Program-made: the position numbers and the translations under genes
The notes under the pieces: model-generated
What the model was told of the DNA's origin: nothing
Databases searched by the model: none
Seen by the model: the letters and a program-made list of their open reading frames with translations, nothing else
Shown: positions 1 through 60,886 of the stretch, piece by piece
How the letters are laid out: each line of letters begins with the position of its first letter
Position numbering within the stretch: position 1 is the first letter of the stretch
Assembly: GCA_965261065.1 (NCBI GenBank)
Contig: OZ253444.1
Span: 3,526,382-3,590,381 of the forward strand
Reading direction: 5' to 3'
DNA: 64,000 nt
From: Bryobacterales bacterium
Lineage (GTDB): Bacteria > Acidobacteriota > Terriglobia > Bryobacterales > UBA6623

Positions 1-932
<932 letters not shown>

Positions 933-968
933 ATGTCCCTCGGAATCGAGATTTCGGTTATGGAAAGG

Positions 969-1571
969 TTAGGACGCGAGGGCTTCACGAATCACGCTCC
1001 ACAGCGCGGGAAGTCCCTCGGCCGTTTTGGCTGAGAAGGGTAGAACGGAGCCGACCTGCTGCTCGACCGTTCGAAGGGCTCGAACTCGCTCCGCTGCCTT
1101 TAATTTATCAGATTTCGAGGCCACGACGACGAACGGCTTTGCGTGAGCCCTCAGCCAGTCGCGCATTTGTTCGTCGAGCGGGGTCGCTCCGTGGCGGGAA
1201 TCGATGATCAAGACCACCAGGCGCAGCGGCTCTCGGTCGAGCAAATAGCTCTCGGCAAGCCGCCGCCAATCCTCGAGCGCCTTGCGGGAGACCTTGGCAT
1301 AGCCGTAGCCGGGCAGGTCAACGAAGTAGAACTCGCCGTCGATGCGGAAGAAGTTCAACGTGCGCGTGCGGCCGGGCGTACGGCTGGTTTGTGCCAGTTG
1401 ACGCCGGTCCAGGGGTCCTTCCGACGACTTGCGTCTTGTGCCGCGCAGCAGCAGCGTGTTGAGCAGGCTCGACTTGCCGACATTACTGCGGCCGACGAAG
1501 GCTACCTCGGGAAGACGGTCTTTTGGGAGTTGGCGCGCCGACGCGGCGCTCAGGACGAACTCAACGGACAT
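969..1571 (-). CDS. engB: Ribosome-biogenesis GTPase EngB/YsxC
   Basis: 200-aa ORF with G1 GRSNVGKSSLLN, G3 DLPGYGYA and G4 SKSDK. It lies 37 nt upstream of rho on the same strand. Confidence 0.85.
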   Translation of the reverse strand: MSVEFVLSAASARQLPKDRLPEVAFVGRSNVGKSSLLNTLLLRGTRRKSSEGPLDRRQLAQTSRTPGRTRTLNFFRIDGEFYFVDLPGYGYAKVSRKALEDWRRLAESYLLDREPLRLVVLIIDSRHGATPLDEQMRDWLRAHAKPFVVVASKSDKLKAAERVRALRTVEQQVGSVLPFSAKTAEGLPALWSVIREALAS

Positions 1572-55521: not shown

Positions 55522-56552
55522 GCTTGGTATCCACTTGACTCAGGTGACCCCAAGATGTAGTGTAGGGCCTGGTGGAGGATTACCCGCGCGACCAACTCGA
55601 ATTCGAGTCTCGCTTTGCGAGCGAGGAGGCTTGCCGCGACTATCTGTTCGCCTTGCGCTGGCCAGAGGGTTTCCGCTGTCCAAGGTGTGGGCATGAGCGC
55701 GCTTGGCCGGTGCGCAAAGTGTGGTTCGAATGCGCTCGCTGCGGGCGGCAAACCTCCGTCACCGCCGGCACGATCTTTCAAGACACACGCAAGCCGCTGC
55801 GGCTGTGGTTCCGGGCGATGTGGACCATCACCACGCAGAAGAATGGGGCCAGCGCCCTGGGTCTACAGCGCGTTCTGGGACTGGGCAGTTACCAAACCGC
55901 CTGGCCTTGGATGCACAAGCTGAGGCGAGCGATGGTGCGCCCGGGGCGGGAGCGATTGACGGGCCTCGTCGAGGTCGATGAGACCTACTGGGGCGCTGAA
56001 GAAGAAGGGGTAATCGGCCGGCAGACCGAGCGTAAAGCGTTGATTGCAGTCGCCGCGGAAGAGAGAGGCACCGGGCTGGGGCGCATCCGCATGCAGCGCG
56101 TTCAGAACGCCTCGGCGGCCAGTTTGATGCCCTTCGTCGAGGAGTCGGTCGAGCCGGGCAGCGTGGTTGTTACCGACAACTGGTCGGGCTACGATCCGCT
56201 CAAGAAGAAGGACTACCAGCGTCGTATCATCTCGATTAACAACCGCCGCGAGCAGGCCTCGCAGCTACTGCCGAGGGTGCACTTGGCGATCTCGCTACTC
56301 AAGCGCTGGATGCTGGGCACGCATCAGGGGGCGGTCAGCCACGAGCATCTGGACTACTATCTCGACGAGTTCGTGTTCCGCTTCAATCGGCGCAGATCAC
56401 GCAGTCGGGGCAAGCTCTTCTACCGCCTTGTGCAGCAGGCCATGGCGGTGGAGCCGACGCCGTACCGCTCGATCGTCGCCGATTGGGACGCTAAGACGCT
56501 GTGAGCCCAACTACAAGATGTTGGGGTCACCTGAGTCAAGTGGATACCCGGC
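55522..56552 (+). mobile_element. IS1595-family insertion sequence
   Basis: 1031 bp with 32-bp inverted repeats GC(T/C)(T/G)GGTATCCACTTGACTCAGGTGACCCCAA. An 8-bp direct target duplication TTCTCCAA sits at 55514-55521 and 56553-56560. Confidence 0.9.
55572..56504 (+). CDS. IS1595-family (ISXO2-like) transposase
   Basis: 310 aa with an N-terminal zinc ribbon (FRCPRCGH...FECARCGRQ) and DDE contexts VEVDETYWG and VVTDNWSGY. Confidence 0.9.
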   Translation: MEDYPRDQLEFESRFASEEACRDYLFALRWPEGFRCPRCGHERAWPVRKVWFECARCGRQTSVTAGTIFQDTRKPLRLWFRAMWTITTQKNGASALGLQRVLGLGSYQTAWPWMHKLRRAMVRPGRERLTGLVEVDETYWGAEEEGVIGRQTERKALIAVAAEERGTGLGRIRMQRVQNASAASLMPFVEESVEPGSVVVTDNWSGYDPLKKKDYQRRIISINNRREQASQLLPRVHLAISLLKRWMLGTHQGAVSHEHLDYYLDEFVFRFNRRRSRSRGKLFYRLVQQAMAVEPTPYRSIVADWDAKTL

Positions 56553-56941
56553 TTCTCCAATACCCCGTCGAGGCTTCCAGCTCCTGGGCCGCCTCGTCGA
56601 AACGGCCTTCATAAGCCAGCAGGCGGCCCAACTCCTGGTGGCCGACGGCCTCCCGAAATTCCTCCTCGATCTCGCGGCACAGCTCGACCCGGCGGCGCAA
56701 GTTGCGCTCGACCGCCGCTAGCTTGCCGATCGGGAGCTGAGCCATGTGGGCCAAGTTCCCCAGGCCGATCGCGAGGTTCTCCTTGTCGCTCGCCTTTTCC
56801 CGAAGGCTGTTGTGCATCTCGAAAACCGGTACCGCCCGGCCTGGCTGCCCGGACAGGCTATAGGAGTTGGCCAGTCCATTGAGCGTCCAGGCCTGGTCGC
56901 GCTCGTCCTTCAGCCGAGCCGGGCGGCCCTCGCCGTCGGGG

Positions 56942-58462
56942 AACATCCATGATAGGTATCTGTCAAGGATGGACGCAGTCATCCGAATCCTCCCGTCAGC
57001 GGGGGCGTTGTCTTCAGCAGTGACGCTTCGCAGCCCGAGCGTTTTTGCGAATCAAGTCGCAAGGTCAACGAGTCACGTGACCAGACATCCATGTGCGCGC
57101 ATCGGGTCGCCCCACCGTACCGGCCGGGGGACCGTCGCGGAAGATTCAGTTTGGGTTTTCAGGCCCGCCGGCCTCGAAACAGAGATACGGACGCATCAGA
57201 AATTTCCCAGGAAACTCCCAGCAAACTCCTTCGCGTAGTCCCCAACAGGCGAGGACCGGCGGGCCGCTCGTGACACCGCACAGCGTCGATGAAACTCTTC
57301 GTTTCTCCTTTTAACAGAAAAAAAGCAAATTCTCCTCGTTACGCCTCGGCCGCAACCCGCGGCACGAACGCGCGGCCACTGGTGTCCACGGCCCGCAGAT
57401 ACGTCACCAACTTGCGCGCCACGGCCAACGTCGCGCGATTGCGAGACCCGCGCGTCAACTCCCGCTCATGGACGTCGTGCAGTTGCGGGTTCCAGCGCGG
57501 CGCGAGTTTCGCCGCCTCGATCAGCACCCGCTGCAAATGCTTGTTGCGCTGCTTCGACAGCGGTCCCCGCTGCGTCTTGCCGGCCGACTCGCGCTGTGCC
57601 GAACACAACCCACAGTAACTCACCGCCTGGCCCAGCGAACCGAAGCGCTCGGGCTCGACGGTCTCCAGCGCCCAGGTCAACGCCGTCACCTCCCCCACGC
57701 CGCGAATCGACTGCAGCAACTCGACGCGTTCCCGCAACAGCGGATGGCGCCGCAATCCGCGCAGTAACTCCTGCTGCAAACGATCGAACATTTCCAGGCT
57801 GCCGCGGGTGATGGCGAGCAGCTCGATCACCGACTCGGGCGTGTCGCGCAGGCTGTCGAGATAGGAGTAGAAATAGTTGCGCCCGTGCAGCCGCCGGGCA
57901 TCGTAGGGTTCGCCCACTTCCATCAGTAGCCCGCTGATTTTGTTCTTCATGCGGACGGCTTCGCCCAGCAGCAGATTGCGATAGCGCAGCACGCGCCGCA
58001 ACTCGCGCAGGGCAGGCGGCGCCACGTAGCAGCGCGGCAGCAGGTTGCAGCGCAGCAGGTCACTGATCTTGGTGGCGTCGAGACGGTCGTTCTTCTTCTT
58101 GGCGCAGGCGATGGCCTTGAGCATGGCCGGGTGTGCGACTTGCAGTTCCTGGGCGAAGGGCTGGAGGTGATCGTAAATCCAGCCGGTAAACAGGGTGGCT
58201 TCGAGCGCGCCCACCCAAGGGCGCTCGAGGGCTGACGCCCAAGCGGTCAGGGCGGCGCGAGTGGCCGCGACCTGACCGCGCTGGACGATCGTTCCGTCCC
58301 CGGTTTTGATGCAGAAGCTGATGCTTTTCTTATGGACATCGAGTCCGATGTAGTAGAGTTCTGGCATGGAATCCTCCTGGGATTGGCTCTGAGCCGACCG
58401 CGTGGCCGCTCTCAGCATTTTGCCCCCGGGAGGATTCCTCTTTGCCACTACCTATGCATTGA
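56942..58462 (-). mobile_element. IS110-family (IS1111-like) insertion sequence
   Basis: About 1.52 kb; the ends are good to roughly +/-5 bp. TGTT is present at both junctions. Subterminal inverted repeat CATAGGTA / TACCTATC(A)TG. There is ~95 nt 5' and ~395 nt 3' of the transposase CDS. Confidence 0.75.
57339..58367 (-). CDS. IS110-family DEDD transposase
   Basis: The start is ATG 58367, with AGGAGG upstream. The N-terminus reads MPELYYIGLDVHKKSISFC and the C-terminal motif is LQSIRGVGEVTALTWALE. Confidence 0.9.
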   Translation of the reverse strand: MPELYYIGLDVHKKSISFCIKTGDGTIVQRGQVAATRAALTAWASALERPWVGALEATLFTGWIYDHLQPFAQELQVAHPAMLKAIACAKKKNDRLDATKISDLLRCNLLPRCYVAPPALRELRRVLRYRNLLLGEAVRMKNKISGLLMEVGEPYDARRLHGRNYFYSYLDSLRDTPESVIELLAITRGSLEMFDRLQQELLRGLRRHPLLRERVELLQSIRGVGEVTALTWALETVEPERFGSLGQAVSYCGLCSAQRESAGKTQRGPLSKQRNKHLQRVLIEAAKLAPRWNPQLHDVHERELTRGSRNRATLAVARKLVTYLRAVDTSGRAFVPRVAAEA

Positions 58463-60886
58463 AACAGAGCACTGAGAAGTTCGATGCGCATCTGGTAGGC
58501 CCCGAAGCGGTAGTAGAGCAGTTGGTTGAGCCGGTCTCGGAACAGCTCGCGCGCCTCGTCGTACCGTCCGGCACCCACGGTATGGTGGTACAGCTCGATG
58601 ACCGGCGCCAGGTCGCCGACCGACTCCACCTTGTCCGGCGCCGGCACGGCATCGAAGTAGTCCCGCAGCCGGCTGTGCACACCCTCTTTGTCCCCCAGCC
58701 GGTCGTAGGCATACTGCCGGACAATCGGGTGCAGGTCGTAGCGGCCGCTCCCCTCGTCGATGAAGAGCAAGCCGCGCGATTCCATCTCCTCCAGCGCTTG
58801 GTCGAACTCGTCCTCGCTCTTAAACGGGTTCAAGTGCAGCAGCGCCTCGTAGTCCATCGGGCTGCGGAACGCGGCGAAGCGGCTGAGCAGGCCGCGCTTC
58901 GCCTCGTCCATCTCGTCGTAGGCGACTTGCAGGATGTGGTGCTGCTCTTTGCCTCTCAGCTTGTCGAGCACGGTGTGCCGCCCCGCCGCCCGAATGTCGC
59001 CGCGCATCTTCGGGTCTCGGAGAATTGCGCCCGCCAGGAGCCGCAGCGAGAGCGGGTGCCGTCCGTAGGGAGCGATGGCCGCGCCGATCTCGGCCCGCGT
59101 GCCCTGGATGCCTTCCGACTGGAAGAAGGTCACCGCGTCTTCGGGGTCCAAGTCGTGGAGATCCTCGCGCCGGCAGCCCGCCAAAGGGCCGTCCGGCCCT
59201 TGCAGCTCTTTCGGAACCAGCCGGCTGGTCAGCAGAACTCGCCCTTGGTGAGAGGCGGCCATTGCCTCCAGAAAGTCCCCTGCGTGAGGATCGACGCAGC
59301 CGTTCTCGTCGCCCGCCGTCTTGTCGCCGCGGTACGCCGCATCGAGCCCCTCGTAGGCGCGCAGCTCACGCTCGAAGCCGTCCAACACCAGCAGAATCCG
59401 CCGCTGCTGAAGCTGCGTGAACAAGGCCCGAACCTTCTCCGAAGGCGAGCGGATTGCGGCCGGGTCGATCCGGCCGCCGCTGGCATAGGCCAGAGCCTCA
59501 TCGAGAAACGAGGCAAAGCGTGCCTCGCGCTCGTAGAACGACCACCACAGCACGCCCTCGGGCCGCTGCTCGTCGGCCACGCGGCAGCCCTTGGCACTGG
59601 CGGCACTTTCCTCGGCATGTCCCGGCAGCGGCAAGCCCAGCACGTCGCGCTGCAGCCAAGCCCACGTCAGCGCCGACTTGCCCATGCCGCCGATGGCGAT
59701 CAGCGCCATCACCGGCTGATTGCCGCCCGTCAGCCATCCGGTCAGCATCCGCCGCTCGTTCACCCGCCCTGTGAAGTTCGGTTGGAGCGGGTAGGGCGGC
59801 ACAAAGTCGGGCTTCGGTGGCCGTGGGCGAACCTGTGGCGCTGCGGGCGTTTTTCTGAGGCGGGCACGAAGCGGTGCGGGTGACTCCACCGGTTCGGCCG
59901 GTTTGCGATCCCCACCGGCAGGCTTCTCGTCAAGCCTGCGCCGCCACCTGCTCCCCTCGGTTGGTACGGCGAGGCCCTTGCCTTGCAGCCTTCGCAGGCT
60001 CTTTCGCACGGCCACCTCGGTCGGTCTTCGGACGCGGCCTTTGAGGGACCCACAAACGTCTTCGATGCTTGCGGCTTCGGAGACCCTTGCGTCCAGATAC
60101 TCGACGATGCAATGGTCAATCTTCTCGTTTCGCCGCGCAACCCACCAGCGCCCCACACCAACGGGAACACCGACGATAGCGGCCAAGCCCGCCAGTATTG
60201 ATATGGCTGTGACAGGGTCCATAGCTGACGCCTTCGGAAGTCCCCACCGATTCTAACGTCTATTCACACGAAATGCCCGTCGTTCTCCTCATCCCTAGAG
60301 GCCCAAATCCGTACGTAAGAATTCTGACAAGCCCGTGATACCCCGGCTCCCCGCAACCGCGACACCCGCGACAACGGAGCCGCGGATGTAAATCCGCGGG
60401 CGCGGCAGAGGCCCGCGCTTCTTGATAGCGCAACCTGCCCTATCCAACCGCGGGGTCCAAGCCCCGGCAGGGGCGCATGAGACTTTCTGCTCCCACATCC
60501 GGCTCTCTTCGAGCCCCACCCTTCGAGTCATGAGAGCGTTACGACAGAGATTCACCATTTAGACGCCAAAGAAAACGAACCCAAATCATCCGAGGTCATC
60601 CCCGGCGCGACGAAAACGTGAGGAACAAACCCACCGAACTCACCCCGCCCCAGCACAGTCACGGAATTTCAAAAATAATTTCCCCAAACCTTTCAACGAC
60701 TTGCCTCTCCAGCCACCCGCCGGCCCTACACCCGAACCGTACACTGAGGATGAAGAAAAGCCGGTCGCGGTCTGGCCGGCGTTGAGAGGGACGCGACGAA
60801 CCTGGGCGCCGTACCGGGAAGGAGCCGCGGGATCGGACCGGGGCACCCGGGCCATCAAAAAGGAGGCGAACCCCGAAGGGGTGGCC

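Follow-up and report, generated by a model that had tools for sequence, protein, structure and literature searches.

An IS1111-like insertion sequence of a Bryobacterales bacterium with a probable bridge RNA (seekRNA) gene in its 3' non-coding arm

The insertion sequence and its ends

The window, i.e. the whole stretch of 64,000 nucleotides analysed here (contig OZ253444.1 of a Bryobacterales bacterium, positions 3,526,382 to 3,590,381), contains on its minus strand a 1525-bp insertion sequence of the IS110 family (Table 1). Element coordinates (el) run in the direction of the transposase and are obtained by subtracting the window coordinate from 58468. The element was used as query for a BLAST search of the whole genome (8.96 Mb), which detected about 45 full copies with 99.5-100% identity plus many partial ones. 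The flanks differ among these full copies, and the ends of the element were fixed by their comparison. The non-coding ends thus delimited are of 100 nt upstream of the start codon of the transposase gene and 396 nt downstream of its stop codon, in agreement with the first-pass annotation, which had described an untranslated 3' arm of about 395 nt and a short 5' side. The gene for an AAA-ATPase/TPR protein is split by the window's copy.

The alignment of the junctions of the copies shows that the left end starts with C-TGT-TTCAATGCATAGGTAG and that the right end terminates with GATACCTATCATGGA-TGT. The subterminal inverted repeats already noticed in the first-pass annotation are represented by ATAGGTA/TACCTAT, a perfect match of 7 bp (9/10 when extended) located at distances of 12 nt and 9 nt from the element ends and conserved in relatives. 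The left end folds into a hairpin that sequesters the Shine-Dalgarno sequence (-50.6 kcal/mol, z = -4.25), and it supplies the motif TG-n-TTCAAT. A perfect TTGACA lies in the right end, 18 bp away from the tip, and TTGAC is found at a similar distance in nearly all relatives. A junction promoter formed by the joined right and left ends is plausible.

Table 1. Features of the element in window coordinates, and tandem modules in element (el) coordinates
Feature	Position	Strand	Evidence or remarks
Whole insertion sequence, 1525 bp	56943..58467	-	Ends from about 45 near-identical copies with different flanks
Left end	58368..58467	-	C-TGT (58464-58467), subterminal repeat (58449-58455), strong hairpin; junction alignment
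Transposase, 342 aa (DEDD recombinase)	57339..58367	-	PF01548, PF02371, NF033542, alignment with IS4321
3' non-coding arm, 396 nt	56943..57338	-	
Predicted bridge/seek RNA core	57077..57265	-	End-to-end match of R1 (128.4 bits, E = 9e-34); alignments A1 and A2; covariation counts
Stem P1, 5' strand	57249..57263	-	Pairs with 57164-57176; 13 pairs, 12 compensatory, 98.6% paired
Putative T-guide GUUGGGGAC, 5' side of target loop	57238..57246	-	Antisense to top-strand GT-CCCC-AAC; flank enrichment; relatives
Stem-loop P2, closing the target loop	57192..57235	-	7/7 pairs with compensatory changes
Target loop, 3' side, with putative B-guide	57177..57191	-	Flank statistics; left-junction matches of relatives
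Stem P1, 3' strand	57164..57176	-	Partner of 57249..57263
Linker CCCAAACUGAAUCUUC	57140..57155	-	UGAA at 57145-57148, three covarying states
Stem-loop P3	57096..57139	-	6/7 pairs with compensatory changes
Putative D-guide CAUGGAUGU(C)	57084..57093	-	Sense copy of right end and core; variants recur in right ends, 10/11 loci
Hairpin P4 (GGUCA...UGACC)	57063..57082	-	Compensatory variants by eye in alignment A1
Right end	56943..56966	-	TTGACA 56961-56966, subterminal repeat 56952-56958, terminal CATGGA-TGT 56943-56951; junction alignment
Module with 142-bp period	el 1384-1525		Up to 10.5 perfect copies, genome 6395928-6397411
Module of 330 bp	el 1196-1525		Holds the whole guide RNA gene
Module of 614 bp	el 912-1525		

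Transposase and family assignment

The transposase displays the two domains characteristic of the IS110 family, the DEDD/RuvC-like N-terminal domain (DEDD_Tnp_IS110, PF01548, E = 2.6e-16) and the C-terminal Transposase_20 domain (PF02371, E = 3e-18). The NCBIfam model NF033542 "IS110 family RNA-guided transposase" recognizes it with 176.9 bits, against a cut-off of 140. The 51 left and 53 right junctions show the insertion mode of this family, namely a site-specific insertion with a short shared core and no classical target duplication. Two features of the IS1111 group are also present: the length of the subterminal inverted repeats is within the range of 7-17 bp, and a long downstream non-coding region is associated with a short upstream one. 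Judged from its sequence, the layout of the element is that of the IS1111 group, by the downstream non-coding region, the subterminal repeats, the order of the guides and the length of the protein.

A search of the PDB with the transposase detected weak, mostly C-terminal similarities with ISCro4 and IS621 (E = 9e-8 for the weak alignment with the IS621 protein). The tblastn search against plasmids recovered only distant IS110-family matches with less than 32% identity, except for one Desulfocapsa plasmid (65%), and no named close relative. Relatives of the transposase with 55-98% identity occur in Bryobacterales and other Acidobacteriota, in Desulfobacterota, Planctomycetota, Sumerlaeota and Chloroflexota, and in other groups.

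A conserved structured RNA in the 3' arm

In these relatives the nucleotide similarity of the arm fades quickly, with the exception of a block around el 1286-1339. A structured RNA of about 190-210 nt is located in the middle of the arm (57063-57265, minus strand) and is conserved downstream of related transposases in several phyla. The aligned relatives share a common architecture composed of a stem P1, a large internal loop, a stem-loop P2, a linker, a stem-loop P3, a nearly invariant stretch and a hairpin P4. The consensus of P1 is CCYGCCRG.CYYGC with CGAGRCYGGCRGG, that of the linker is CCAAACU(S)AAUCUUC, and the nearly invariant stretch found 3' of hairpin P3 reads CA(A/C)AUGGAUGUCUGG.

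RNAalifold predicted 32 pairs and recovered P1, P2 and P3. When 28 pairs were counted on 32 sequences, 95.3% of the cells were paired and compensatory double changes were observed for 25 of the 28 pairs. None of 500 shuffled controls reached the observed pairing values, and when the partners were shifted by one to three columns the pairing fell to 30-41%. Concerning P4, for which the automatic consensus fold was unusable, the alignment A1 being out of register, the variants GGUUC/GAACC, GGCUC/GAGCC and GAUUC/GAAUC were identified by inspection. G-U pairs are frequent on the strand of the transposase and turn into A-C mismatches if the other strand is read; the transposase strand is therefore the folding strand. 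The centroid fold of the single sequence also reproduces P1, the loop and P2. We built a covariance model (R1) from 32 sequences, and in about 18 relatives outside the seed it detects the RNA over its full length, immediately 3' of the transposase gene, with scores of 60-125 bits. The long non-coding end thus contains a conserved structured non-coding RNA, as known for bridge/seek RNAs. The first-pass annotation had presented the whole arm of 395 nt as a candidate guide RNA to be folded on the minus strand; a conserved structure was indeed found there, restricted to the middle 190-210 nt.

A scan of positions 56500-58800 with Rfam 15 (E up to 10) gave only matches at chance level (for example P35, 22 bits where the gathering score is 70) and no curated family. 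R1 was not found in the genomes searched from a set of 120 others of the same phylum, with 24 candidates per genome scored under strict filters. Searched unfiltered against both copies of IS4321 from plasmid R751, it produced a best match of 4.9 bits, which has E = 0.53 and lies on the wrong strand. The transposase of IS4321 is 24% identical over its full length, and it differs in the motif region, GLVPRQYSTGG in IS4321 against GLCSAQRESAG here; the serine motif GL-S----SA of the present transposase departs from the motif GL-P----S/T-G of the IS1111 group. On these comparisons of sequences, the element is not closely related to those studied before, and its RNA, whose model R1 finds nothing in IS4321, is not demonstrably of the same structural family as the published IS1111-type seekRNAs.

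Insertion site and putative target guides

The 51 left and 53 right flanks together give the consensus target Y-C-TGT-CCCC (logo Y|CTGT...TGT|CCCC), with TGT as the shared core and, on the left side, a C ahead of it. The four C's of the target are nearly invariant and almost no information is present to the left of position -1. The core had initially been written TGTT, since the window's copy belongs to the minority (5/53) having an extra T ahead of CCCC; the consensus of the flanks corrects it to TGT. A paralogous empty site, AGTAGTAGC-CTGT-CCTCGAC, adjoins one of the copies. The genome contains 168 unoccupied CTGTCCCC sites, which means that about one in five such sites is occupied.

Two segments of the internal loop correspond to this target. 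The 5' side of the loop ends with GGGAC or a variant and has a variable stretch ahead; in the window's copy the T-guide GUUGGGGAC is the reverse complement of GT-CCCC-AAC, i.e. of core positions 2-3 followed by the right flank. The 3' side is composed of a variable stretch followed by CUGUUU (..AUCU-CUGU-UU in the window's copy). The effective part of the B-guide located there, CU-CUGU (57179-57184), is a sense copy of the left flank and core, and as such its expected partner is the bottom strand. The top-strand reader is thus situated 5' and the bottom-strand reader follows, and the two contacts on opposite strands (GUUGGGGAC with GTCCCCAAC and CUCUGU with YCTGT) overlap at GT, at the crossover; the same is observed in relatives.

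The occupied sites depart from the 168 empty CTGTCCCC sites exactly at the positions predicted by the guides. At position -1 a pyrimidine is present in 46 of the 51 copies (90%) against 38% of the empty sites (n = 168), and G, which represents 42% of the empty sites, never occurs. The presence of T or C and the absence of G at this position fit the U of the B-guide at -1, which can pair with A or wobble with G. Position -2 is a C in 43% of occupied against 21% of empty sites, and on the right side A, A and C are enriched at +5 to +7 (for A at +6, 52% against 20%). The use of the B-guide in this genome is limited to about 6 nt, the remaining part facing the flank (CCGUAU) not being mirrored in the 51 left flanks.

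The guides were also compared with the flanks of 26-27 relatives, whose junctions were extracted by script. The T-guide paired with its own flanks has a score of 6.07 of 8 against 3.70 in mismatched pairings, and the values for the B-guide are 3.27 against 1.81. No permutation among 20,000 reached the observed sums for either guide (p <5e-5, a value overstated by the phylogenetic relatedness of the relatives). Matches of 9-11 nt between T-guide and right junction are found in L081, L089, L103, L055, L109, L073 and L083/86, and matches of 8-11 nt between B-guide and left junction in L053, L070, L074, L081, L089, L091, L097, L103 and L106. In the group L105-L110, xCCGAC guides and GTCGGx flanks replace GGGGAC and GTCCCC. 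The closest relative, the L031 family, has an arm 93% identical and differs by one guide base (GUGGGGGAC); its right flanks start with CCCCC in 4/7 cases, of which two read CCCCCAC. The complementarity of the loops to the target that the first-pass annotation had anticipated is therefore present, and the guides change in step with the flanks across the relatives.

Putative donor guides

The element ends are matched by two other segments, located on either side of P3. The D-guide CAUGGAUGU(C) reproduces, in sense, the nine terminal bases of the right end, the sequence copied being CATGGATGT. Among the relatives, the non-consensus D-guides AUAGAUGU, AUGAAUGG, AUGGAAGU, AUGGAGGU and AUGGAUGG are accompanied by the same change in their own right end; this covariation holds for 10 of 11 loci, L053 being the exception. 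On the other side of P3, the UGAA of the linker is complementary to TTCA at positions 5-8 of the left end. This contact (UNAA/TTN'A) exists in three covarying states, UCAA/TTGA, UGAA/TTCA and UUAA/TTAA, plus wobble cases. The UGAA is a candidate right-donor guide and, with 4 bp, the weakest of the four guides. The loops had also been expected to pair with the element ends, and these two contacts agree with that expectation. Considering the permutation tests together with the tables of donor guides, the guides covary across orthologues with both target and donor, as is characteristic of bridge/seek RNAs.

Function of the arm and alternative explanations

The interpretation of the arm as a guide RNA gene, proposed in the first-pass annotation, is based on the conserved structure, the complementarities to target and ends, and their covariation. 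By every test open to sequence alone, the RNA of this element is a bridge/seek RNA, and we estimate at about 0.9 the probability that the 3' arm encodes the bridge RNA (seekRNA) of an IS1111-type element of the IS110 family. The RNA would be produced from the transposase strand, probably by excision from a read-through transcript. In the predicted fold, the long stem P1 would close the large internal loop capped by P2, followed by the linker, P3, the single-stranded stretch and P4. The internal loop would read the target through the T- and B-guides, whose contacts overlap at GT, and the segments flanking P3 (UGAA and D-guide) would read the joined ends of the element. As for other IS110/IS1111 elements, excision would generate a circle joining right end-TGT-left end; the RNA-bound recombinase would then bring the circle junction to a Y-C-TGT-CCCC site, where the strands would be exchanged at TGT.

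Concerning expression, a scan of the arm for promoters and terminators detected no promoter-like site and one terminator-like site, of chance level and on the wrong strand. The element is present in four metatranscriptome runs, as assembled contigs in which strand, ends and level are not readable and which may contain DNA. In one run, a contig covering 56946-57197 is deeper (144 against 52), for which DNA carry-over or the extra genomic copies of this part are possible causes, so that the difference is counted neither for nor against an RNA. No circle-junction joint was reported in the contigs of the four runs.

The arm could be viewed as a feature of the DNA only, made of transposase-binding sites, subterminal repeats and half of the junction promoter, with no functional RNA. 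DNA signals do exist in the right end, where the subterminal repeat is accompanied by TTGAC(A), conserved at about 18 bp from the tip. This view is nevertheless very improbable, given that the stems accept G-U pairs on one strand only and keep their pairing through double substitutions, and that the unpaired segments track element-specific flanking host DNA, which a protein-binding DNA site would not do. An equally small probability is given to a functional RNA of another kind, either a structured 3' UTR or terminator, or an antisense or regulatory small RNA controlling the transposase instead of guiding recombination. Such a role has a precedent in Ssr9 and Asr9 of ISPpu9: IS110-family elements can carry regulatory small RNAs downstream, and Ssr9 is dispensable for the transposition of ISPpu9 (PMC12288879). 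The present element also appears to regulate translation, by the hairpin over its Shine-Dalgarno sequence. A regulator of its own mRNA, however, has no reason to match the two strands of host insertion sites over the crossover or to change along with these sites, and an unsystematic look at the 5' UTR noticed no extended complementarity.

Finally, a small protein could be encoded, since short open reading frames are listed at 57159-57281 (minus strand, 40 aa) and 57093-57314 (plus strand, 73 aa). The relatives display indels of many lengths in these frames and the conservation tracks base pairing and not codons, which leaves a coding function a negligible probability.

Comparison with known systems

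The guide RNA proposed here shares several features with the seekRNAs of ISEc11, ISKpn4, ISPa11 and ISPst6 (Siddiquee et al. 2024, PMC11187229). Published IS1111-type seekRNAs derive from the downstream non-coding region and have their top-strand match 5' of their bottom-strand match, the two overlapping in the target (PMC11187229). The position of the RNA, a DEDD transposase in the range of 330-350 aa, the subterminal inverted repeats, the site-specific target without classical duplication, the segment complementary to the top strand placed 5' of the bottom-strand one and the overlap at the crossover are all found in the present element. It differs from the elements of PMC11187229 in that two donor-reading segments are also identifiable and in its hosts, which are Acidobacteriota and other environmental phyla.

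The bridge RNA of IS621 (Durrant 2024, PMC11208160; Hiraizumi 2024, PMC11208158) has likewise four guides, divided into target and donor halves that address opposite strands, with left guides including the core and target segments held in a stem-closed internal loop. Unlike in IS621, where the RNA lies 5' of the gene, it is located here 3' of the gene, and each loop presents the strands in the opposite order. TGT replaces CT as the shared core, and the right-donor contact is limited to 4 nt and leaves the core uncovered. The two donor segments are placed on either side of a hairpin, within a multi-branch region, in contrast to the simple internal loop of IS621; donor-binding bases situated in a multi-loop were described for many IS1111 orthologues by Durrant et al. 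(PMC11208160). A third point of comparison is ISPpu9/Ssr9 (Pares-Guillen et al. 2025, PMC12288879), an IS110-family element also followed by extra modules bounded by copies of end sequences, with some modules apart from the transposase gene. ISPpu9 is a member of the IS110 group and its module consists of a separate small-RNA gene equipped with end boxes of its own, whereas the modules of the present genome repeat part of the element's own right arm in tandem, with junctions at internal NGT sites.

The covariation provides a map of four putative guide segments in an environmental lineage that is distant from the enterobacterial and pseudomonad elements investigated to date. To our knowledge, few IS1111-type guide RNAs have been dissected so far. 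The RNA-guided recombinases of the IS110/IS1111 type, a class discovered in 2024, are under development for the programmable insertion, excision and inversion of DNA. This genome constitutes a natural experiment in which about 45 recent insertions, 168 unused sites, self-targeting and core mismatches would indicate the pairing that is needed (about 6 + 9 nt), and it shows in addition the places of off-target recombination and the strand whose sequence survives at each junction. For the annotation of this genome, the element accounts for a large number of disrupted genes and tandem repeats.

Tandem right-end modules and core asymmetry

Many of the full copies continue into a tandem series of partial repeats of their own right arm, of three module types (Table 1). 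Every new module junction reads right end-GGA-TGT-C..., and the internal sites involved are three of the four TGT-C sites of the element, one of them being the DNA that encodes the D-guide. Relatives display a similar pattern at other internal NGT sites, including the DNA of the B-guide in L072 and that of the D-guide in L045. Guide-encoding DNA necessarily represents a sense copy of the sites that the guides read. In L038 the module junction GGA-AGT-C carries the A of the internal site; the core base therefore comes from the pseudo-target. Slippage at a 9-bp direct repeat was considered for the 142-bp array and proved insufficient, since the other module types share only NGT with the junctions and one relative has the A of the site in its core. 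The sequences of the junctions point to modules made by the recombinase rather than by slippage. They could arise by self-insertion followed by the collapse of a long direct repeat, or by exchange of the right junction with an internal site; unequal crossing-over would later expand the modules into long arrays.

The cores of the junctions are asymmetric. Seven right junctions of this genome read GGA-[G/C/A]GT or TGC instead of TGT. The left junctions are CTGT in 50/51 copies, including the six, among the seven cases of deviant right junction, that belong to a full copy. When the cores of target and element mismatch, the left junction keeps the base of the element and the right junction that of the target in all seven cases of this genome and in most relatives. 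If TGT is a staggered core, such a bias is expected from an exchange of the top strand followed by replication; the numbers are small and this is to be taken as a lead only. Copy-and-paste transposition has recently been proposed for IS621 and is currently debated, and the core asymmetry fits these proposals. A combined scheme can tentatively be drawn, with the odds clearly against it in our estimate, where the recombinase-RNA complex would act on the element's own NGT-C sites, guide DNA included, to give the right-end arrays, and where the core asymmetry would reflect an exchange of the top strand only, resolved by replication in a copy-and-paste manner. If this scheme is true, the 330-bp modules are complete extra guide-RNA genes. 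Among the relatives, L050 and L055 have TGA at the right junction, as in their own T-guide, and TGT at the left junction; L034 displays the opposite core pattern.

Rearrangements in the right arm

Partial right-arm modules of 142, 330 and 614 bp are found in tandem arrays 3' of full copies of the IS110-family element, both in its own genome and in relatives. All the module joints read right end-NGT-internal sequence (NGT being the core with a variable first base), and the internal junction sites include the DNA encoding the D-guide and the B-guide, the segments of the predicted guide RNA that match the element right end and the target left flank with the core, respectively. The array of 142-bp modules is composed of 10.5 perfect copies, and each 330-bp module contains an extra complete guide-RNA gene. 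One element copy (genome 2430716-2432306) displays an internal duplication of 71 bp at el 1220-1290 (el, element coordinate), bounded by the two CTGTT motifs that flank the target-binding loop. This duplication is a further rearrangement at guide-coding DNA, beside the module arrays.

In some own-genome copies, the A/T-rich beginning of the 3' arm is interrupted by an IS1595-family element of ~1.03 kb, whose 310-aa DDE transposase is ISXO2-like and includes a zinc ribbon. The insertion shows an 8-bp duplication and is located at el 1139-1146 (3 copies) or el 1157-1164 (3-4 copies).

Junctions, flanks and left end

Within single insertions, the core is asymmetric: the left junction retains the TGT of the element, whereas the right-junction core is often not TGT and follows the target. 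The relative L034 is a counter-example.

A short tandem repeat (period 9-14) starting with the CCCC motif often lies directly 3' of the insertions, in many own-genome copies and in the relatives L034, L037, L059, L091 and L098. It is present at 9 of the 45 occupied sites, versus 10 of 168 empty CTGTCCCC sites and none of 610 random CCCC sites. These repeats may represent a family that is preferred as target, or the footprint of repeated recombination.

The gene split by the element copy in the window encodes a large AAA-ATPase with C-terminal TPR repeats (the AAA_16 match is weak). At the left end of the element, a strong hairpin (-50.6 kcal/mol, z = -4.25) is predicted to bury the Shine-Dalgarno sequence directly preceding the start codon. 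The own genome also harbours about 14 copies of a second, distinct IS110-family transposase, which scores about 189 bits against NF033542.

Coordinates of the features associated with the element and its relatives
Feature	Location	Strand	Remark
Module arrays, examples	genome 6395928-6397411 (L113); 505354-506016; 539673-540335; 3440663-3441323; 3480321-3481547; 3889787-4191396
Module arrays, relatives	L031, L038, L042, L045, L072
Deviating right-junction core, own genome	4062709, 4495010, 5473865, 6140213, 8471313, 8645405, 5701660
Core asymmetry, relatives	L032, L038, L050, L055, L070, L081, L105
IS1595-family element, examples	genome 2787394-2788424 (L112); 5474253-5475283; 8323854-8324884; 755622-756652; 7441315-7442345; 8618126-8619156
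Left-end hairpin	window 58368-58440	minus	GGAAUCCUCC.. paired with ..GGAGGAUUCC
Split AAA-ATPase/TPR gene	window 58465-60222 and 56536-56940	minus
Second IS110-family transposase, example	genome 3111350-3112339		about 13 further places
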